A stretch of 64,000 nt of DNA from positions 8,571 through 72,570 of the forward strand of contig DAOUBX010000124.1 in the NCBI GenBank assembly GCA_034432445.1, given 5' to 3'. Shown in pieces: positions 5,984-48,104 of this stretch. The notes beneath the pieces are model-generated. The model had not been told where the DNA came from and did not search any database. It saw only the letters and a list, made by a program, of their open reading frames with translations. Source of the stretch: Anaerolineales bacterium (GTDB lineage: Bacteria > Chloroflexota > Anaerolineae > JAAEKA01). The translations under genes and the position numbers were made by a program. The stretch's first letter is position 1. Each line of letters opens with the position of its first letter.

Positions 5984-6345
5984 TGAAAGTTAAGAAAATG
6001 CTCCGGCAATAGCCGCTTGCGGCGGGTCGCCCCTTATGTGAGCCTGCCCGGCGACACCTGCACTTGCAGCGCAGATGCAAGTGTGAATCGACCGGGCTAT
6101 CAAACGGCGCCCCGTCAACGGGGCTGAAAGACGCGCCATGCACGCGCGAGCCCGTTTCAACGGGCGCTGCTATGTAGCCGGGGAACTTCATTCCCCGGCG
6201 AGATAGCATGAGGGCGAGCTCCGCTCCATTGCCGGAATATTATCTTAAGCTTCATAAGCCGTTACTACGAAGGAGTGGCGCGTGCAGGTACGCATTCCGG
6301 TGGCGGAGACGACACGAATTGCTACGTACAAGAGTAACGGCTGAA
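5921..6345. repeat. Two ~60-bp near-identical direct copies of the kinase gene 3' end (5921-5983 and 6281-6345) flanking a ~300-bp palindrome-rich insert
   Basis: Both copies encode R-V-H/Q-V-R-I-P-V-V/A-E-T-T-R-I...K-S-N-G-stop and are identical at about 50 of 60 nt. The insert between them carries the hairpins CACTTGCAgcgcagaTGCAAGTG, GCCCCGTcaaCGGGGC, GCCCGTTtcaACGGGC and CCGGGGAacttcattCCCCGG. Confidence 0.7.
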
Positions 6346-7769: not shown

Positions 7770-10339
7770 ATGAAAACTTCGACCACAGTAATCCGCGTGA
7801 GCCTGGTTGCCGCGTGGCTGGTAGTCGTCTGCTTGCTGGCAGTTCCCAACACAGCGTTTGCGCAGTTCGCAACGCCAACGGTAAATGGCACGATCGCATC
7901 CGGAGAATACGGTACCCACACCGACGGCCAAAACCAGCAGACCAACGGCAGCCAGGTGTGGTACATGACCTGGGACGATACCGACTTATACGTAGGCATC
8001 ACTGGCGCAACATTAGGCGAAGCCGCAATCATCTACCTCGACAAGAACCCGCTTGCGCCGATCAACGGCGGTTCTAACAGCGACGGCACCATCGTGGGCA
8101 ACGCATACGACGGCACGAACTTTGCCGCGTTGCAGTTCCGCGCCGATCTCGTCTTGTACGTCAAGAGCGGGTATCGCGAGTACCGCACTGCCAACGGCTC
8201 CAACGGTTGGTCGAGCGCCACGACCGGGTTCGGGAGCTATGCTGATAGCGGAACTACCCGCGAGTTCTCCATCCCCTGGTCCGTGGTCGGCGGCCGGCCC
8301 AGCTCCTTTGCTTGGTTTGGTTATCTGACCTCCAGCGGCGGCTTCGTGTACGGACAGGTGCCTACCGAAAACAGCGGTGGAACCATTGGCACGTCGGCTC
8401 GGTATGTGCGCTACTACATCGTCAACAACACCGGCGACGGCGCCAGCACCAAGCCTTTCTCGCGCAACAGCTTCGTGTTCAACAGCACGGGCGACGTGAG
8501 CGGCTTTGGCGCTATCTCGGTGTACGACTTCACTATGAACAGCTCCGGGCGCACCCTAACCCGTGGCAGCGGCGCGTGGACGATCACCGGCAGCTTCCGC
8601 GTGGACGCGGGCACCGTGAGCTTTGGCAACACCACCAGCGGCGCCAGCATGTCCGGAGACGTGGTAATCGGCTCTGGCGGCACCCTCACCCTCTCGTCCG
8701 CCATCGGCGGCGACCTGAACGTCGGCGGAAACTGGACCAACAACGGCGCGTTCAACGCCAATAGCCGCCTGGTGACCTTCAACGGCTCCGGCGCGCAGAG
8801 CATTGGCGGGTCGAGCACCACCACCTTCGGCTACCTCGCCATCGCCAGCGGATCGTCCACCACGCTGGCCCAGAACGCCAACGTTTGGAACGACTTCGAG
8901 GTGTACGGGGCCTTCAGCGTGGCCGACAAGACGCTCACGTTGCAGAACGGCACGGACCTGGAGATCAAGAGCGGCGGCTCAGTCAACGGCGGCAGCGGCA
9001 CCATCGTGCTAGAGGGCAACAGCAGCAACAACCCCGACTTCATCAACGCCGGCACCTTCACCGCCGGCACCGGGACGGTCCATTTCAAGGGCCAGAGCAC
9101 GGCCGGAAACTACCGCAACGGCCGCGTCTGGGGCTCCAGCGCCACCGCGTTCAAAAACGTCACCCTCACCTACAACGGCAGCGGTAGCGGGGACGAGGAT
9201 ACCTTTGGCGTGGACTTCTACGACCAGGACAGCCCGGCCGTGCGCGCCACCATCAACGGCGTGCTGGCGCTTAACAGGCGCACCTTCGTCGCCCACGCCG
9301 AGGTCGGCAGATCCGGGGGAAGCTGCTCCGCCTGCGACTGCGGCGCTCCCACCTACGACTCCGGCTCCACCCTGCGCTACAACGACCTGGAATACAAGGA
9401 ATACGAGCCGGACTCGAGTTCGTGTCCCGGCTCGCCGGAGGATAATCCGTTCCAGGTGTTCAGCGAATGGCTGAACGCGACGTCCGGCCACGGCGTGCCC
9501 TACCACGTCACCGTGGGCAGCGACTCGTGGGTCAGCCTCTTCTGCAATCCCGGCACCAACTACCGCGTCAACGGCGACTTCACCGTCGAGGCGGGCGTGG
9601 ATGGCAACAACCTTGGAGGCTCCGGCAGCACGCCCCCCGGCTTCGAGCAGAACGGCTTCACCCTGGGCGAGGTCGGCTTGTCCACGGTAACGGTCATGGG
9701 GGATGTGGTCAACAAAGGCACCTTGAAGCAGTTCGGGCCGGCCATCTACATTGCCCCCGGTAACACTGTCTCTTTTATCAGGATCCAGGACGACGCCTCC
9801 ACGATGAAATACTACGGCCTGGACATCAAGAACATCCATGCCACGCAGAGCATGGAGGTCCCTTTCGTCAAGGTCAGCGGCAACCAGACCACCTGTCCCT
9901 ACTGGGGTGATCCCCCCGACTATCCCTACGGGATAGTCAAGCGCTGTTACTTTGTTATGGCCGTGGGCGTGGGGTTGGATCCGGTAAACTACGAGATCAC
10001 CTTGTACCACGAATACGGTGAGCTGAACGGGTTCGATCCCAGCACTCTATCGCCCTGGCCTGGGAGACGGTCTCAGAGGCAGGCAATGTAGGCTTCCGGG
10101 TGCTGCGCAGCGAGGCCGTGGACGGCGAGCGGGCGCTGCTGGCCTTCGTGCCGGCAGCCGCTCCGGGGAGCACGGCGGGGGCCAGCTACCGCTACGTGGA
10201 CACGACCGCCGCTCCCGGCCGCACCTACTGGTACTGGCTGGAGGACGTGAACACGGCCGGCGGGCACACGCTCCACGGCCCGGTGAGCGCAAGGGCTGCG
10301 CTACGGCTGCGGCTGTGGCTACCGTTGATCAGGCGCTGA
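7770..10339 (+). CDS. large secreted Gly/Ser/Thr/Asn-rich beta-helix/adhesin-like protein with N-terminal CBM9/DOMON-like module; C-terminal tail continues in another frame after a frameshift near 10025-10050
   Basis: It has a signal peptide and a long run of degenerate G/N/T repeats. Frame 0 ends at 10091. Frame 2 (10022-10339) encodes a conserved C-terminal tail ...WETVSEAGNVGFRVLRSEAVDG...YRYVDTTAAPGRTYWYWLEDVNTAGGHTLHGPVSA. Confidence 0.65.
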
Positions 10340-11010
10340 CGCGGCGGTGCAGGCCGGCCTGAGTCGGCCTATCGCTTGAACTCAGGCTTCGGTCGGGCCT
10401 TGACGTCAGACCCGGCTGAAGCCTGAACTCCTGTTGTTTGCTGAAGCCTAGACTCCTGTCGTCTCTCCCTGTCGTCTGCGGCCCTGCAGAGCCCATGCGC
10501 TTGATTACTGCGTTGGCTGCCCCGGCCACGAAGGTGGCCGGGGCGCCTTGCGTCTGGCGGGCGTAGCCTACTCTCCACAGTCCACGAGGCTGACAACGGC
10601 GCAATTGCCCGGCGAACCTCCGCCTCGAACCGGCAGGTCAATGGGACACGGATGAAGGCGGACGAGCGCTGACGCCTTTGGCCTGAGCCGAGGTAACTGC
10701 TCAGGCGTGCCCCTAACCCAGGATTGGAAATCCCTGGCTGACAGTACGAAGGCCCCTCAGGGCCTGGCGGAACGTGTTCCCAGCGGCTGTGGCCGCTCAC
10801 CTGCACCTCGCCTGCGGCCCACCAGTCGCTTCGCTCCTTAAGGCTTCGTTGGCGCAGGCGCAGGTGTCGTGCTGTCAGACGGTGAACACTTGCACCTGCG
10901 ATGCAAGTGCAGGTGTTCCATTCACCGGGCTGAGTAGTTACCCCGAAAGGTCTCAACCGATCTCAAACACACCGGGTCCATTTGACTGCGCTTGCAGAAG
11001 GTAGCGTGCC
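10340..11010. promoter_or_regulatory. 670-bp repeat-rich non-coding leader upstream of the PLD-family gene
   Basis: It contains direct repeats CTGAAGCCTGAACTCCTG (10416-10433) and CTGAAGCCTAGACTCCTG (10441-10458), a CTGTCGTCT pair, and the perfect palindrome TGACGTCA inside a 9-bp-stem inverted repeat. The CACTTGCA...GATGCAAGTG...CCGGGCT motif (10887-10931) is also found at 6061-6098. The 25-mer GGTCTCAACCGAYYTCAAACACACC (10949-10973) is also found at 47945-47969. Confidence 0.5.
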
Positions 11011-13458
11011 ATGCCGGGGAAGCGGATAGCTAGGTGGTTAGGGATCGGCGGCATCGTGCTGCTGATCGTGCTAGCGGCAGTGCTCTTTTTCAGCCAAACT
11101 CAGCGCGGCCAGCCCGCTGCGCCGAGCCAGGCCGCGCCGCTGCCGGTGGTCACGGCGCCGGTGGAGCTGCTGGCCATGCCCGACGCCGGCAGCGCAGCAC
11201 TGCTGCAGGCCATCGACACCGCCGAGAGCAGCATCCGCCTCAAGATCTACCTGATCACCGATGAGGCCGTGGTGGAGGCATTGGGTCGCGCCGTGCAGCG
11301 CGGGGTGAACGTGCGCGTGCTGATCGAGGAGGCGCCCTACGGCGGCGGGGAGACCAACGCGCTGGCGACACAGGCGCTGCAGTCCGCCGGCGTGGACGTG
11401 CGCGGCCGGCCGGGCGTCTTCGTCTACAGTCACGAGAAGAGCCTAGTGGTGGACGACCGCCGCGCCTTCATCATGACGCACAACTTGACCCGCTCTTCCT
11501 TTGAGCGCAACCGAGAGTACGCGGTGATCGTCGACGATCCGGCCGTGGTGACGGAAGTGGCGCGGGTGTTCGACGCCGACTGGGAGCGCATCGAGCCAGA
11601 CCTGAGCGGGGCGCAGCTGGTGTGGAGCCCGGTCAACAGCCGGCCGCGCATCGCCGCCTTGATCGACAGCGCCCGAGTCAGCCTGGACGTGCAGCACACG
11701 TCGCTGCAGGACCCGGAGCTGATCGGCCGGCTGGCCGCCGCAGCCAGGCGCGGCGTCAGCGTGCGCGTGACCACGCCGGCCATCTACGACCCCGCCGAGT
11801 CGGAGTACGGCGCCATCGACGAGCTGTTTGCCGCCGGCGTGGCCATTCGCTTCCTGGACGAGCCCTACGTCCACGCCAAGGCAATGATCGCCGACGGCCG
11901 GCTGGCCATGGTTGGCTCGCAGAACTTGACCACCAACTCGCTGGAGAACAACCGCGAGCTGGGCATTATCTTCGACGACGCGGCCGCGGTGAACCAGTTG
12001 GCCGGTTACTTCCTGCGCGATTGGAACGCCGCCAAGCCGTGGGCCGGCCCGCAGCCCACGGCCACGCTGCCGGCCGGCGACGTCCTGCGCTGGGACCAGG
12101 TCGCCGGCTACGTGGGCCAGACCGTGACCGTCGAAGGCGATGTGATCGACACTTACGACAGCGGCAAGGTCACCTTTCTCAACTTCGACGAGGACCGCAC
12201 CTTCACCGTCGTGATCTTCGCCAGCGCTTACCCGGCCTTTCCTCAGCCGCCGGAGGACCTGTACTATCGCAAGCGGGTGCGGGTCACCGGCCAGATCAAG
12301 CTTTATCAGGACCGGCCGGAGATCATCGTCGAGTCGCCGGAGGCCATCGAAGTGGTGGCGGACCTGCTGGCGACGCGTGGCCAGCCACCGCCTACGCCTC
12401 CGGCCGACGGCGTGATCGACTGGCGCGAGGCCGGCCAGTACATCGGCCAACGGCTGGCCGTCGAGGGCGACGTCGTGCGCGTCTATAACAGCGGCAAGGC
12501 CGCCTTCCTCAACTTCGCGCAGGACTACCGCGGCCAGTTCTCGGTCGTGATCTTCGCCTCCGACTTCGACCGGTGGCCGCAGCCGCCCGAGCAGGTCTAC
12601 CTAGGCCAACGCGTGCGGGTGTCGGGCAAGATCAAGGAGTACCAGGGCGCGCCGGAGATCGTGGTCGAGTCGCCGGAGCAGATCGACATCCTGGGCCCGG
12701 CGGCAACGGCCACGCCGGATGCCGTGGCAGCCGAGCGGTCGGCGCCGGTCGACCTCGCCATCACCGTCCCGCCCACGGCCACCCTGCCCATCTCGTCCAC
12801 CGCAGCCATCACGCCCACCGCCAACCCCACACCCGCCGCCACGGCTACGCCGCTTCCGGTCATCCCCTGGCAGCAGGCCGCGGCCTACGAGGGCCAGGAG
12901 GCCACGGTGGAGGGCGTGGTGGTGGACAGCTACAAGTCCAACTCGGTGATCTTCCTCAACTTCAGCGAAGACCGCAGCGCCTTCAAGGCCGTGATCTTCC
13001 GCCGCGATTGGAGCAAGTGGCCGCAGTCGCCGGAGCTGCTGCTGCGGGGCGCAACGGTGCGCGTCAGCGGGCCGGTGCAGCTCTACCAGGGCGCGCCGGA
13101 GATCATCGTCGACGACCCGGCGCAGATCGAGGTCGTTGCCCCGCCGCCCACGCCCGCCGCGCCGCCGCCCTCGGCGCCCGTCCCCTGGCAAGAGGCGGCC
13201 GCCTACGCAGGTCAACGCGTCACGGTCGAGGGCGTGGTGGTGGACACCTACAAGTCGGACAAGGTGATCTTCCTCAACTTCGGCCCCCGCCGCAGCGACT
13301 TCAAGGTCGTGATCTTCGCCAGCGCCTGGGATCGTTGGCCGCAAACGCCCGATGCGCTCTACGACGGCAAGCGCCTGCACGTCACCGGCCAGGTCAAGCT
13401 CTACAACGGCGCGCCGGAGATCATCGTGGACGAGCCGGGGCAGATCGGTGAGCGGTGA
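11011..13458 (+). CDS. membrane-anchored phospholipase-D-family (2x HKD) protein with four C-terminal tandem OB-fold (BOF/tRNA_anti-like) repeats; putative extracellular nuclease
   Basis: An N-terminal TM helix is followed by two HxKx4D motifs (HEKSLVVD, HAKAMIAD...GSQN). Four ~95-aa repeats W..A.Y.GQ.VTVEG.V...Y.S.K..FLNF...F..VIF...WPQ.P..Y.G..V.V.G.I..YQGAPEI.V..P.QI are separated by PT-rich linkers. Confidence 0.75.
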   Translation: MPGKRIARWLGIGGIVLLIVLAAVLFFSQTQRGQPAAPSQAAPLPVVTAPVELLAMPDAGSAALLQAIDTAESSIRLKIYLITDEAVVEALGRAVQRGVNVRVLIEEAPYGGGETNALATQALQSAGVDVRGRPGVFVYSHEKSLVVDDRRAFIMTHNLTRSSFERNREYAVIVDDPAVVTEVARVFDADWERIEPDLSGAQLVWSPVNSRPRIAALIDSARVSLDVQHTSLQDPELIGRLAAAARRGVSVRVTTPAIYDPAESEYGAIDELFAAGVAIRFLDEPYVHAKAMIADGRLAMVGSQNLTTNSLENNRELGIIFDDAAAVNQLAGYFLRDWNAAKPWAGPQPTATLPAGDVLRWDQVAGYVGQTVTVEGDVIDTYDSGKVTFLNFDEDRTFTVVIFASAYPAFPQPPEDLYYRKRVRVTGQIKLYQDRPEIIVESPEAIEVVADLLATRGQPPPTPPADGVIDWREAGQYIGQRLAVEGDVVRVYNSGKAAFLNFAQDYRGQFSVVIFASDFDRWPQPPEQVYLGQRVRVSGKIKEYQGAPEIVVESPEQIDILGPAATATPDAVAAERSAPVDLAITVPPTATLPISSTAAITPTANPTPAATATPLPVIPWQQAAAYEGQEATVEGVVVDSYKSNSVIFLNFSEDRSAFKAVIFRRDWSKWPQSPELLLRGATVRVSGPVQLYQGAPEIIVDDPAQIEVVAPPPTPAAPPPSAPVPWQEAAAYAGQRVTVEGVVVDTYKSDKVIFLNFGPRRSDFKVVIFASAWDRWPQTPDALYDGKRLHVTGQVKLYNGAPEIIVDEPGQIGER

Positions 13459-13470
13459 ACAGTGAACGGT

Positions 13471-13512
13471 GAACGGGGGGGGAATATGCGGAGACTATTT
13501 GCCCCCCCGTTC
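13471..13512 (+). terminator. G8/C7 hairpin immediately downstream of the PLD-family gene stop
   Basis: GAACGGGGGGGG-19 nt-CCCCCCCGTTC forms an 11-bp stem. There is no U-tract. Confidence 0.4.
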
Positions 13513-13560
13513 CGCGCCTTCAAAGGCTTTCCCATCGGCCAGGACGAGGCGATCAATGGC
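13505..13560 (+). repeat. fragment copy (about 87% identity over about 45 nt) of the ~180-bp element that is complete at 14083-14262
   Basis: ttccgcgccttcaaaggctttcccatcggccaggacgaggcgatc here versus ttccgcgccatcgaaggcttccccatcagcgaggacgaggccatc at 14207-14251. Confidence 0.55.
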
Positions 13561-13658
13561 CCACCGGTGCGTCAATAGCCGGCGTGGCTGCGCAGACGTG
13601 CGGCGACCGGCAAGCTTGGCTTCAAATCGAGGCGGTGTCTTAATCGCCTTGACGACCA

Positions 13659-14009
13659 ATGGACATCAGCCACAAAAAAGGTACTGCGATGTTGTCACCC
13701 GAAGATCGTAGCGTAGCGAGAGCCTTCAAACGTCGCCTGCAACGAATCAGCCCCGTGTTGGACATGCGGGTCTATGGCTCACGCGCGCGCGGCGATGCCG
13801 CCCCAGACTCGGACCTGGACATTTATATCGAGATGGAGAGCGTCACACCTCAACTGCGCCGCCAAATCAGCGAGTTGGCCTGGGAGGTTGGCTTGGAGCT
13901 GGATCGGGTGATCTCGACCTTGGTGGTGACGCGTGAGCAGTTGGAGCATGGCCCGATGGGCGTCAATCCGATCATCCTCAACGTCCAGGCGGAGGGAGTG
14001 TCGCTGTGA
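13659..14009 (+). CDS. minimal nucleotidyltransferase (MNT/MntA-like, NTP_transf_2)
   Basis: The 116-aa protein has the GSRARGDAAPDSDLDI motif (GS-x9-DxD). Confidence 0.8.
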   Translation: MDISHKKGTAMLSPEDRSVARAFKRRLQRISPVLDMRVYGSRARGDAAPDSDLDIYIEMESVTPQLRRQISELAWEVGLELDRVISTLVVTREQLEHGPMGVNPIILNVQAEGVSL

Positions 14010-14350
14010 ACGAAGATCAGCTGCGCGACCTGCTGCGTTACCGTATGCGCCAGGCTGACGATAGCCTCCGCTCTCAATCGCACGCCATGCCCCAACAACT
14101 CCCCCTCCTCGCCGAAGAACGCGCTACCTACATCACTCAACGCGACGACACTGAGCGCACAGACGCCGTCGAGCGCCTGCGCGCCAAGCTGTTCGCCCCC
14201 ACCTTCCGCGCCATCGAAGGCTTCCCCATCAGCGAGGACGAGGCCATCCTGGCGCTGTCCGACCCACCGCACTACACCGCCTGTCCCACTCCCCTTCTGC
14301 CGCAGATCGTCGATCGCCGGAGGAGGGAACGAGCTTGGGCGTTGGTCTGA
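14006..14350 (+). CDS. small ORF overlapping the MNT stop (GTGA); possible MNT partner, but no clear HEPN Rx4-6H motif; spans the repeated ~180-bp element
   Basis: There is a 4-nt overlap with the upstream gene. The protein is low-complexity at both ends. Residues 29-87 are encoded by the element repeated at 13505 and 15400. Confidence 0.35.
   Translation: MNEDQLRDLLRYRMRQADDSLRSQSHAMPQQLPLLAEERATYITQRDDTERTDAVERLRAKLFAPTFRAIEGFPISEDEAILALSDPPHYTACPTPLLPQIVDRRRRERAWALV
14083..14262 (+). repeat. ~180-bp element (complete copy) recurring downstream of each TA cassette
   Basis: It begins cgccATGccccaacaactcccc and ends gcgctgtccgac. Partial copies are found at 13505-13560 and 15400-15535. Confidence 0.55.
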
Positions 14351-14363
14351 TCGGTGCTATAAT
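14335..14363 (+). promoter_or_regulatory. sigma70-like promoter for the AbiE-like pair
   Basis: TTGGGC-17 nt-TATAAT lies 50 nt upstream of ATG 14414. Confidence 0.4.
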
Positions 14364-14413
14364 CCGTCTGCCGGCAGCCGCGCCGGTATCCCAGAAGCAA
14401 ACGCCGATCAGCC

Positions 14414-14716
14414 ATGACTAGCGCCAGCATCCCCGGCGGCCTGTGGCCGCACTTCCAGGAATACGATCCCGCTCACTTGGACCGCGACCAGGACGCCGAC
14501 CTGATCATCCAGCGCACCCTGGAGTATGGCACGTGGGAGGAGGTCCGCTGGCTGTTGGCGACCTACGGCGTAGAGCGCACGCGCCAGTTCCTGCGCCTGC
14601 ACGGTGAGCGGCTGCTGTCGGCTGCGGCTTTCACCTACTGGCGCAAGCTGCTGGGTGTGCGGCGTTGGCGCCGTTCGCCGTTTGCGCAGGAGGCCCGGCA
14701 GGTATGGCCCTATTGA
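14414..14716 (+). CDS. small protein upstream of and overlapping the AbiEii-family gene; putative cognate antitoxin/partner
   Basis: The 100-aa protein has the W..FQEYD...LDRDQDADLIIQRTLEYGTWEEVRWL motif. Its stop overlaps the start of the next gene by 13 nt. Confidence 0.5.
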   Translation: MTSASIPGGLWPHFQEYDPAHLDRDQDADLIIQRTLEYGTWEEVRWLLATYGVERTRQFLRLHGERLLSAAAFTYWRKLLGVRRWRRSPFAQEARQVWPY

Positions 14717-15378
14717 CGCCCCACTGGGAGGCGCTGACACCCGACACGCGCGCAGCGTTCCACCTGGCCGCCGGACTGCCTTTCATCCGGCGCTACTACC
14801 TGGCCGGTGGCACGGGGCTGGCGTTGCACCTCGGCCATCGCTTTTCGGTCGATCTCAACTTCTTCTCCCCTGCCGCCGATGCCGTCGGGCCGGACGAACG
14901 TGCAGCAATGCAAGCGGCTTTTGCCAATCCGTCTTTGGTCATCACCCACGACAAGGACATGACCTTCGTCGCCACCTGGCAGGGCGTGGGGATTAGCTTC
15001 TTCCGGCTTGCGCTCTATCCGTTGGTGCAGGAGCCGCTCTTGCTGGAGGGCGTGCCGGTTGCCACCGTCGAGGAGATCGGCGCAATGAAGTTGGCGGCCA
15101 TCATGGCGCGGGGAACGCGTAAGGACTATGTCGATCTGTACTTCATCTTGCAGCGCACGCCGCTAGAGCGCCTGTTCGAGGTGGCGACTGTCAAGTATGC
15201 TCCGGTGCGCGCCTTTGCCGTCAGCGCCGTGCGCGCCATGACCTACTTCGTCGACGCTGAGGCCACCCCGATGCCCCAGATGATCGCACGCGCGTCGTGG
15301 ACAACCATCAAACGCTTCCTGGAACGCCAAGCCTTGGAGGCCGGCCGCCAGCACTTGGAAGACTTGTGGCCACAATAG
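14704..15378 (+). CDS. AbiEii/AbiGii-family nucleotidyltransferase (type IV TA toxin family, DUF1814)
   Basis: YLAGGTGLALHLGHRFSVDLNFF and KLAAIMARGTRKDYVDLYFIL match the family signature. Start chosen at ATG 14704 (MALLTPHWEAL); the ORF-track start at 14665 is less likely. Confidence 0.75.
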   Translation: MALLTPHWEALTPDTRAAFHLAAGLPFIRRYYLAGGTGLALHLGHRFSVDLNFFSPAADAVGPDERAAMQAAFANPSLVITHDKDMTFVATWQGVGISFFRLALYPLVQEPLLLEGVPVATVEEIGAMKLAAIMARGTRKDYVDLYFILQRTPLERLFEVATVKYAPVRAFAVSAVRAMTYFVDAEATPMPQMIARASWTTIKRFLERQALEAGRQHLEDLWPQ

Positions 15379-47541: not shown

Positions 47542-48104
47542 AGGTCAGTTCCTTTCCATGTTGTGCAAAACTGTTGTCGTTTGGCGTCGCATCCGTAGCT
47601 ACTCAGGCTGGTGCGGCAGAGAGACTACGCACGGCGAGGCCGACTACAGCGCTTGAAAAGACGGTGTGGTGGGGCGTAGGTTAGGTCTACACCTGGGCCA
47701 GCGACTCCGCAAGCCCTGGGCAAGGTTGCTGCTCTCACTCATGTTTAACGCTTTTGCGCATCACCTCTGCGGCACAACCCGCCAGCCACCACAATCCGCG
47801 CGATCAGGGAGCAGACGCGTGGCAAGCGTATGTGTCCAAAGCTGGTTGAGCGCCAGACCCTTCGAGGTTCCTTGGTTGCTCACGCAGCGCCGCAAAAGCA
47901 GTTGCTGTGTCGATCGCGAGGCACCGTAAGCACAGACACCCAAGGGTCTCAACCGACTTCAAACACACCCATTTCAGTCTTGGGGCACGAACCCCTTTGG
48001 GTCGTGGGCTAACGGCGCGTGACAGTCACGCGTTGAGAGACTTGAAGGGTTTGCCTGAACCAGAGCATCTATGATAGACTCCATGCCCGTGCGTTGACCA
48101 CTGC

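Follow-up and report, generated by a model that had tools for sequence, protein, structure and literature searches.

A signal-anchored phospholipase D-superfamily protein with four C-terminal OB folds from Chloroflexota, a probable cell-surface nuclease

The PLD-superfamily endonucleases Nuc (Salmonella pKM101) and NucT (H. pylori) are homodimers of single-HKD subunits of about 155 residues and carry no accessory domains. Human PLD3 and PLD4, which are lysosomal 5'-3' ssDNA exonucleases, have a type II anchor and an extracytoplasmic compact two-HKD domain, lack OB domains, are glycosylated and undergo proteolytic release; SpPLD of Serratia plymuthica (PDB 7e0m) also lacks OB domains, and its signal peptide is cleaved. 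B. subtilis YhcR, S. sanguinis SWAN, V. cholerae Xds and Shewanella ExeM are extracellular nucleases that do bear OB folds: they combine an export signal, surface retention and one or two N-terminal OB folds with a non-specific, metal-dependent nuclease module of the SNase or EEP type. The cardiolipin synthases ClsA and ClsB belong to the same superfamily as Nuc and have two HKD motifs; their catalytic domain lies on the cytoplasmic side, and ClsA has two N-terminal TM helices.

In this work we analysed a gene in a stretch of 64,000 nucleotides of Anaerolineales bacterium DNA (the window), whose product is laid out as one signal-anchor, a compact two-HKD PLD core (residues ~50–350) and four OB repeats of about 94 residues. 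Its features are the following.

11011..13458, + strand: whole gene, encoding the 815-aa signal-anchored PLD-OB4 protein (ORF call, ATG start)
11035..11091, + strand: N-terminal signal-anchor (aa 9-27, WLGIGGIVLLIVLAAVLFF) after K4, R5 and R8 (Kyte-Doolittle)
11161..11595, + strand: PLD half-domain 1, HKD motif H141-K143-D148 at 11431-11454
11623..12045, + strand: PLD half-domain 2 (Pfam PLDc_2 aa 215-338), HKD motif H288-K290-D295 at 11872-11895, then GSxN (VGSQN)
12076..12354, + strand: OB repeat 1, aa 356-448 (Pfam PF01336, repeat HMM)
12406..12690, + strand: OB repeat 2, aa 466-560
12691..12852, + strand: long Pro/Thr/Ala-rich spacer between OB2 and OB3, aa 561-614 (composition)
12853..13134, + strand: OB repeat 3, aa 615-708 (Pfam PF01336, repeat HMM)
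13171..13449, + strand: OB repeat 4, aa 721-813, C-terminal end of the protein (Pfam PF01336, repeat HMM)

All these elements are present at the coordinates listed, far beyond chance, and no further OB or PLD copy lies elsewhere in the window. A preliminary description, made from the DNA letters, had claimed this open reading frame, which is exactly as described there, as well as an N-terminal signal-anchor and two intact HxKx4D motifs of the PLD superfamily, all of which were confirmed; the extracytoplasmic location that it predicted is reinforced by the signals across the family. It did not recognise the architecture as a described one, and our literature search on combinations of PLD/HKD, OB fold and nuclease likewise found no paper describing a PLD-OB architecture. 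The protein is not a homodimerising single-HKD subunit of ~150–200 residues, the form shared by Nuc, NucT and Zucchini, but has two fused HKD halves, tethered to the membrane and followed by four OB domains. It resembles PLD3 and PLD4 in its predicted type II anchor and extracytoplasmic two-HKD domain; it is about 22% identical to them, the profile match (E = 1e-14) covering one half only. With YhcR, SWAN, Xds and ExeM it shares the overall design, from export signal and surface retention to OB folds, its nuclease activity being predicted, but its catalytic module is a PLD core and its four-OB array is C-terminal. It differs from ClsA and ClsB by its outward-facing catalytic domain and smaller core, and misses their curated models widely.

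The sole hydrophobic segment of the protein, at residues ~9–27, is the only one in which the Kyte-Doolittle window exceeds 1.6, and a Pro/Ala tether of about 25 residues joins it to the PLD core. The family comprises more than 140 database clusters in Chloroflexota, with zero to four OB domains, and Thermaceae loci with one. Its members all have generic database names; in JGI annotations relatives are called 'cardiolipin synthase' and their OB part is labelled 'YhcR'. A lipobox Cys, the lipoprotein signal, is present in 77 of the 115 complete relatives, while those that lack it, including the closest relatives of our protein, bear a signal-anchor at the same place as here. The Thermaceae relatives, which occur in MAGs, have a signal peptide and one OB domain, and distant relatives have no OB domain and mostly no obvious signal. 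Of the 121 family members, 118 have both HKD motifs intact. From the single anchor, the positive-inside N terminus and the lipoprotein or anchor signals across the family, the catalytic domain is predicted to face outward, at odds with the cytoplasmic-side catalytic domain of a cardiolipin synthase.

The core contains two intact motifs, H141 (HEKSLVVD) and H288 (HAKAMIAD), is matched twice by Pfam PLDc_2 (E = 9.5e-52, 174.8 bits against a cut-off of 27) and has the bilobed alpha/beta fold of the PLD superfamily. The two halves, fused in one chain, are 36% identical to each other, and in the computed arrangement H141/K143/D148 and H288/K290/D295 form one active site. The core has the size of a fused Nuc dimer, without lid loops. 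When its profile was compared with PDB sequences it matched SpPLD (E = 2e-30), Nuc (4e-24), Zucchini (5e-17), NucT (4e-15), PLD3 (1e-14) and K4 (1e-12), whereas the lipid enzymes PLD2, PldA and PLD1 were the weakest matches, with E values of only 2e-6 to 1e-5; judged by profile, the core is thus far nearer Nuc, Zucchini, NucT, PLD3/4 and K4 than lipid PLDs. The SpPLD match does not settle the function of our protein, because the authors of the SpPLD structure, who noted nuclease-like loops, did not determine its substrate. The PLD nuclease signature, HxK(x)4D(x)6GSxN (PMC5714352), is exact in half 2 (HAKAMIADGRLAMVGSQN), while half 1 has MT instead of GS (HEKSLVVDDRRAFIMTHN). This signature is not discriminating, since lipid PLDs likewise have GG or GS there, and the Met-Thr of motif 1, where PLD nucleases have Gly-Ser, counts against a nuclease. 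So does the fact that the protein misses every curated NCBIfam cut-off, including that of the NucT equivalog (NF010490, 61.6 bits against 211); its best NCBIfam and PADLOC match is DrmC, with 101.3 and 106 bits, below the NCBIfam cut-off of 133.

Pfam tRNA_anti-codon (PF01336) is matched four times (E = 3.4e-31, 107 bits against a cut-off of 27), and the repeats form five-stranded OB barrels. The four OB repeats with Pro/Thr linkers of the preliminary description were therefore found, and their tRNA_anti-codon type stood, while the BOF type (YgiW-type bacterial OB fold) also proposed there was rejected, the repeats having no match to the BOF family. Nearly all structural neighbours of the OB model are nucleic-acid-binding OB folds, and the conserved aromatic (Y27/F34/F37/Y79) and basic (K31/R42/R71/K77) positions map to strands beta2, beta3 and beta5 and adjoining loops. 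The linkers measure 17, 54 and 12 residues; the 54-residue one, 67% Pro/Thr/Ala, varies from 17 to 89 residues among 28 four-OB orthologues, and the remaining linkers are nearly fixed. Recent tandem amplification of the repeats was rejected, because each is closer to its positional orthologue (73–81% identity, repeat 1 averaging 81% across the other four-OB proteins) than to its neighbours (50–60% pairwise). An exhaustive OB-profile search combined with a Pfam census found this OB subtype elsewhere in 6,927 representative clusters. An N-terminal hydrophobic segment is present in 110 of the 133 top matches, and the fusion partners in the 50 scanned were SNase (17), PLD (4), kinase (4), EEP (3) and HhH (1), so that the subtype appears to be mostly exported and chiefly fused to SNase, EEP or PLD nuclease domains. 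Acidic residues outnumber basic ones in the repeats (K+R 8–10, D+E 11–16) as well as in the core (K+R 28, D+E 41), and such a net acidic charge is unusual for a polyanion binder and argues against a nuclease.

The profile and size of the core, its low cardiolipin-synthase scores, the structural neighbours and nuclease fusions of the OB domains and the export signals of the family lend indirect support to the cell-surface nuclease of the preliminary description. We consider it probable that the PLD-OB4 protein is a nuclease anchored on the outside of the cytoplasmic membrane, most likely a metal-independent one typical of Chloroflexota. The OB array would capture extracellular nucleic acid with avidity, probably single-stranded or frayed DNA or RNA, and keep it close to the core, which would cut phosphodiester bonds without a metal, through the covalent phospho-histidine chemistry known from Nuc, NucT and PLD3/4. 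The likeliest role would be scavenging of extracellular DNA or RNA for phosphorus, nitrogen and nucleotides, or remodelling of eDNA in flocs and biofilms.

The genomic context holds no functional clue, since the neighbours in six related loci are either unrelated or conserved only as a synteny of the lineage (M28 peptidase, PLD-OB, his genes); no informative operon partner was found in the window and these six loci, and the seven contexts contain no nucleotidase, phosphate/nucleoside transporter or competence genes. This bears on the possibility that the same chemistry serves natural transformation, the tethered nuclease binding incoming DNA through its OB array and degrading one strand or cutting it for uptake. 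Thermus is naturally competent, Thermaceae MAGs encode one-OB homologues, and the same OB subtype is found in a ComEA-like HhH protein, all of which would fit such a role. A precedent is H. pylori NucT, for which such processing has been proposed: this PLD nuclease is periplasmic and membrane-associated and has been implicated in both transformation and purine salvage (PMC5714352). We nevertheless regard this role as unlikely, because comEA, comEC and pilus genes lie beside none of the seven loci, competence is undocumented for these Chloroflexota, nucT has a mild phenotype in transformation (PMC5714352), and in relatives PLD-OB is paired across a short gap with a secreted M28 aminopeptidase, an arrangement more suggestive of two exoenzymes.

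It is improbable, although compatible with the results, that the protein is a processive metal-independent surface machine in which the distal OB pair, on its spacer of variable length, would fish for extracellular DNA that is single-stranded or frayed, while the proximal pair would feed it into a PLD3/4-like exonuclease site. If so, PLD-OB would be the bacterial functional counterpart of lysosomal PLD3 and PLD4; in sludge, soil and sediments it would be a major eDNA-degrading activity of Chloroflexota, uncounted by domain-based censuses such as PMC11495043.

A lipid-directed enzyme (phospholipase D, or cardiolipin- or phosphatidyl-transferase-like), with the outer leaflet or foreign membranes as its target and the OB domains as spacers or as protein or glycan binders, is quite improbable. 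The JGI names, the strong fold matches of the core to F13, PLD2 and PssA, its position only ~25 residues from the membrane and the acidity of the OB domains are in favour of it, as is the match to TIGR04265 (E = 2e-22). However, that match (79.6 bits, cut-off 290) and those to PRK12452 (61.2, cut-off 787) and ClsB (48.6, cut-off 281) are far below threshold, so the core does not cluster with cardiolipin synthases; moreover, it is predicted to face outward, is Nuc-dimer sized without lid loops and has lipid PLDs as its weakest profile matches, and the OB subtype is joined to nucleases elsewhere, with no lipid enzyme among the listed partners. We consider it very improbable that the protein cleaves phosphodiesters in some other extracellular polyanion, be it RNA alone, polyol phosphates resembling teichoic acid, polysaccharides linked by phosphodiesters or polyphosphate, given that the OB-subtype partners are classical DNA/RNA nucleases, that a Pfam scan found no PPK N-terminal or head domains in the protein, and that no glycan-related context was seen.

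The gene has a secreted ORF, TA pairs and hisD as neighbours, with MNT-type and AbiEii-type TA pairs directly downstream. The preliminary description remarked on this adjacent TA island and listed defence among the possible roles; a link with the island was rejected, and the defence role found no support. Orthologous loci, in which PLD-OB abuts hisD, lack the island, and the island has a lower GC3; the adjacency is incidental, as the orthologous loci without it indicate. An anti-phage or TA-linked part, such as a DISARM DrmC-like PLD, is barely credible and effectively refuted by this comparative context, since the DrmC similarity is generic, domain-level and below cut-off (PADLOC reporting DrmC-domain matches without partner genes), drmA, drmB and methylase genes are absent nearby, and the protein is predicted to be exported.

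Extracellular DNA is a large pool of phosphorus and nitrogen and a structural part of flocs and biofilms. A tethered nuclease with a PLD catalytic module would most likely extend the known kinds of extracellular DNase, modestly but genuinely; its novelty lies in how two well-understood modules are combined, not in a new mechanism. In a census of secreted nucleases in activated sludge, the domains used for selection were endonuclease, SNase, NUC1, SNc, HNHc and nucleotidase (PMC11495043), and because of this choice a PLD-type surface nuclease would go uncounted, at least there; the available part of the text of a marine-sediment study mentions neither phospholipase nor OB fold (PMC8289736). If the family is active on DNA, models of eDNA turnover would gain a lineage-typical enzyme class (Chloroflexota and Thermaceae). 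EDTA was present in the NucT assays, and the authors cite cation-independent activity (PMC5714352); as PLD nucleases need no metal, a PLD-OB enzyme would probably be EDTA-resistant. The natural series of zero to four OB domains on one catalytic core would also suit the study of how OB arrays tune nuclease avidity and processivity.

An Rfam scan of the whole window found no regulatory RNA in the 670-bp gap upstream of the gene, and a promoter and terminator scan of positions 10000–14000 gave chance-level sites only, including a spurious hairpin within the gene. The GC3 of the PLD-OB gene (0.91) resembles that of the neighbouring hisD (0.95), which indicates that the gene is native, and gene calls in three independent public assemblies give an identical 815-residue product.

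The open reading frame lies exactly where the preliminary description had placed it (11011..13458, + strand), starts with ATG and encodes 815 amino acids (AA); gene calls in three independent public assemblies give the identical product. The rest of the announced layout was also recovered. Both HxKx4D (HKD) motifs are intact, at H141 and H288. Far above the gathering scores, Pfam recognises two copies of PLDc_2 (E 9.5e-52) and four of the tRNA_anti-codon OB domain (E 3.4e-31). The sole strongly hydrophobic segment, the N-terminal signal-anchor, covers AA ~9–27 and follows K4, R5 and R8. The two half-domains of the PLD catalytic core are 36% identical to each other, and the four OB repeats 50–60%. 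As its GC3 (0.91) fits that of the neighbouring hisD (0.95), the gene is native. The repeats are positioned as follows:

AA 356–448, OB1
AA 466–560, OB2
AA 615–708, OB3
AA 721–813, OB4

They are separated by linkers of 17, 54 and 12 AA, the 54-AA linker being 67% Pro/Thr/Ala. The model of OB2, also a confident one (pLDDT 96.5), shows a barrel of five strands in which a helix connects strands 3 and 4. Its best 60 fold neighbours are almost all nucleic-acid binders, including the anticodon-binding domains of Asn-, Asp- and Lys-tRNA synthetases, RPA, OB domains of PolC and PolD, RecG, Pot1, Teb1, Stn1 and MCM; toxin-type and carbohydrate-binding OBs are absent from these 60. The repeats had been compared to both BOF and tRNA_anti domains, and only the second comparison holds, since Pfam and the fold neighbours both give the tRNA_anti-codon type. 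The conserved aromatic (Y27, F34, F37, Y79) and basic (K31, R42, R71, K77) positions map to strands beta2, beta3 and beta5 and adjoining loops, on what is predicted to be the usual OB binding face, and the FLNF motif aligns with the AspRS motif G-x-x-I-F-[IL]-D.

Nucleic acid is the probable substrate according to several independent lines of evidence. We regard a census of fusions as the strongest argument for this prediction. Run over 1.84 billion proteins, the OB profile recovers 6,927 representative clusters, and 110/133 of its best matches that begin with M have an N-terminal hydrophobic segment. In 50 OB-profile proteins that have a further region of 120 AA or more, Pfam identifies nuclease domains of the SNase (17), PLD (4) and EEP (3) types, together with Ser/Thr protein kinase (4), ComEA-like HhH (1) and CsgG (1) domains; the families listed in this census include none that acts on lipids or glycans. 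The nuclease fusions and the hydrophobic segments indicate that this OB subtype repeatedly serves as an accessory module in extracytoplasmic nucleases. It also occurs in stand-alone anchored proteins of 120–150 AA and in OB-only arrays of 2–6 repeats (P0121–P0268), and the kinase fusions (4/50) look like the STK_OB candidate of PADLOC.

The core was modelled with very high confidence by alignment-based AlphaFold (AA 41–352; pLDDT 96.6, pTM 0.93) as a bilobed pair of alpha/beta half-domains. Either half superposes on the Nuc endonuclease over 147/152 Nuc residues at 2.0 A, hence the 312-AA core is essentially a covalently fused Nuc dimer. According to PMC5714352, the substrate of lipid PLDs lies buried under lid loops, whereas in PLD nucleases the loops are short and the groove is open; a core of Nuc-dimer size would leave no room for such lids. 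The family profile, run against PDB sequences, gave SpPLD (2e-30), Nuc (4e-24), Zucchini (5e-17), PPK (3e-16), NucT (4e-15), PLD3 (1e-14), the K4 nicking-joining enzyme (1e-12) and PLD4 (7e-10), with lipid PLD2, PldA and PLD1 much weaker (2e-6 to 1e-5). SpPLD, the closest structure, is without an established substrate; its authors ask whether it is a nuclease, and stress its short nuclease-like loops and a positive pocket ill-suited to acyl chains. Fold scores by themselves do not tell substrate classes apart, half 1 has Met-Thr where the GSxN signature has Gly-Ser, and acidic residues outnumber basic ones in the core as in the OB repeats. The core does not classify as a cardiolipin synthase: all models for these enzymes score far short of their curated cut-offs (80/290, 61/787 and 49/281 bits) and the catalytic domain faces outward. 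No curated equivalog cut-off is reached, those of NucT and DrmC included.

In the computed layout, an N-in signal-anchor leads through a ~25-AA tether to one bipartite HKD site, which is followed by four OB barrels joined by flexible linkers. The OB array would bind extracellular nucleic acid, probably at single-stranded regions given its aaRS/RPA-type fold, and would concentrate it near the membrane-proximal core, which would cleave it as Nuc and NucT do, without metal and through a phospho-histidine. Action on nucleic acids at the cell surface is the reading that we consider reasonably probable. The physiological role is less certain: it would be nutrient scavenging or eDNA remodelling, and the main alternative is DNA uptake. 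No nucleotidase, phosphate or nucleoside transport, competence or defence partner was found at any locus examined. The defence role first envisaged finds no support, PADLOC giving only generic DrmC-type domain matches, and DrmC itself is rejected, its score being below the curated cut-off.

A database search for the family yielded 141 clusters (90% identity), and all those with an organism name are Chloroflexota MAGs (Caldilineales, Anaerolineae). They are labelled 'PLD-like domain-containing protein' or 'hypothetical', and at JGI 'cardiolipin synthase' or 'YhcR endonuclease/HKD family nuclease'. Both HKD motifs are intact in 118/121 sequences, which carry 0, 1, 2, 3 or 4 OB repeats in 1, 16, 7, 68 and 29 proteins, respectively. 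A lipobox Cys is present in 77/115 complete two-HKD sequences, and the complete lipobox-less members inspected, including the closest relatives of the query, combine a basic N-terminus with a long hydrophobic anchor, so that the family appears to be exported and membrane-tethered. The OB repeats of the query are each 73–81% identical to same-position repeats of other four-OB proteins, compared with 50–60% between neighbours, which indicates that the array is old and rejects recent amplification. The OB2–OB3 spacer varies from 17 to 89 AA in orthologues, the remaining two linkers being almost constant, which fits a flexible spacer dividing a proximal from a distal OB pair. In P0024 (849 AA) this spacer consists of about 8 tandem copies of an 11-AA unit (AALAGLPTEPA), which shows that it evolves through repeat expansion.

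A wider survey used one genome per species, with relatives reported in three tiers. Those at 40% identity or more come from Chloroflexota, where the proteins are exported and have 1–4 OB, and from Thermaceae, where MAGs of Oceanithermus and Thermus encode proteins with a signal peptide and 1 OB. Those at 35–40%, from Acidobacteriota, Proteobacteria, Mycolicibacterium, picocyanobacteria and Bacteroidota, are mostly ~340-AA proteins without OB, and an obvious signal peptide is absent from most of them; OB fusion therefore accompanies export. The OB-less two-HKD proteins may represent cytoplasmic ancestors of the exported form. They occur in many phyla (L036–L085, e.g. L051 of Synechococcus RCC307 and L064 of Mycolicibacterium frederiksbergense), and many begin with MSRSLI.

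The literature searches gave no description of a PLD+OB architecture. The OB-bearing surface nucleases YhcR, SWAN, Xds and ExeM share its design logic, but their catalytic module is SNase or EEP instead of a PLD core, and PLD3/PLD4 have a parallel topology. By the tests applied, the protein does not belong to Nuc/NucT, Cls, DrmC or BOF. The prediction for this real, recurrent and uncharacterised family is clear and testable; the family recombines familiar modules and brings no new principle. The method stated for an activated-sludge nuclease census would have missed these proteins.

Three relatives (71%, 55% and 47% identical) share the gene order dinB (opposite strand), M28 peptidase, PLD-OB gene and his genes; three more distant members have unrelated neighbours. 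The secreted M28 aminopeptidase genes are directly upstream (L086 3418–4983, L087 3727–4986, L001 6289–7863), with a gap of 15–18 bp in two of these three loci, and the two genes may form a co-transcribed exoenzyme pair. The window has no M28 gene upstream of the PLD-OB gene, whose surroundings contain:

7770–10091, 773-AA ORF with a signal peptide, no Pfam match and a TAG stop
10100–10339, 79-AA ORF, out of frame with the preceding one, ending ...LRLRLWLPLIRR
10340–11010, non-coding gap, unusually long (~670 bp)
10382–10426, 19-nt inverted repeat, within the gap
10415–10462, 23-nt direct repeat, two copies, within the gap
10886–10916 and 6054–6084 (- strand), 31-nt dispersed intergenic repeat, copies 93.5% identical
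13659–15378, two toxin-antitoxin-like pairs between the PLD-OB gene and hisD (NTP_transf_2 with a 114-AA ORF; DUF6922 with AbiEii)

The toxin-antitoxin-like pairs have no counterpart at the orthologous loci L001 and L086, and their GC3 is 0.74–0.80 versus 0.91–0.95 in flanking genes. They are therefore an insertion, and their adjacency, which had been pointed out beforehand, is incidental. Gene calls at L003 show further small insertions (HNH, HicA-like) within the downstream his cluster.

The two ORFs before the gap could represent a single gene for a large secreted protein that has been split or frameshifted; a sequencing error is another possible explanation. In relatives the corresponding gap, preceded by the M28 gene, is only 15–138 bp. 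The gap in the window has no Rfam match; a second, weak repeat match links 10940–10973 with 47936–47969. The 31-nt repeat may be a REP-like element, and three public short-read assemblies with the exact PLD-OB gene all break inside it, at position 10913.
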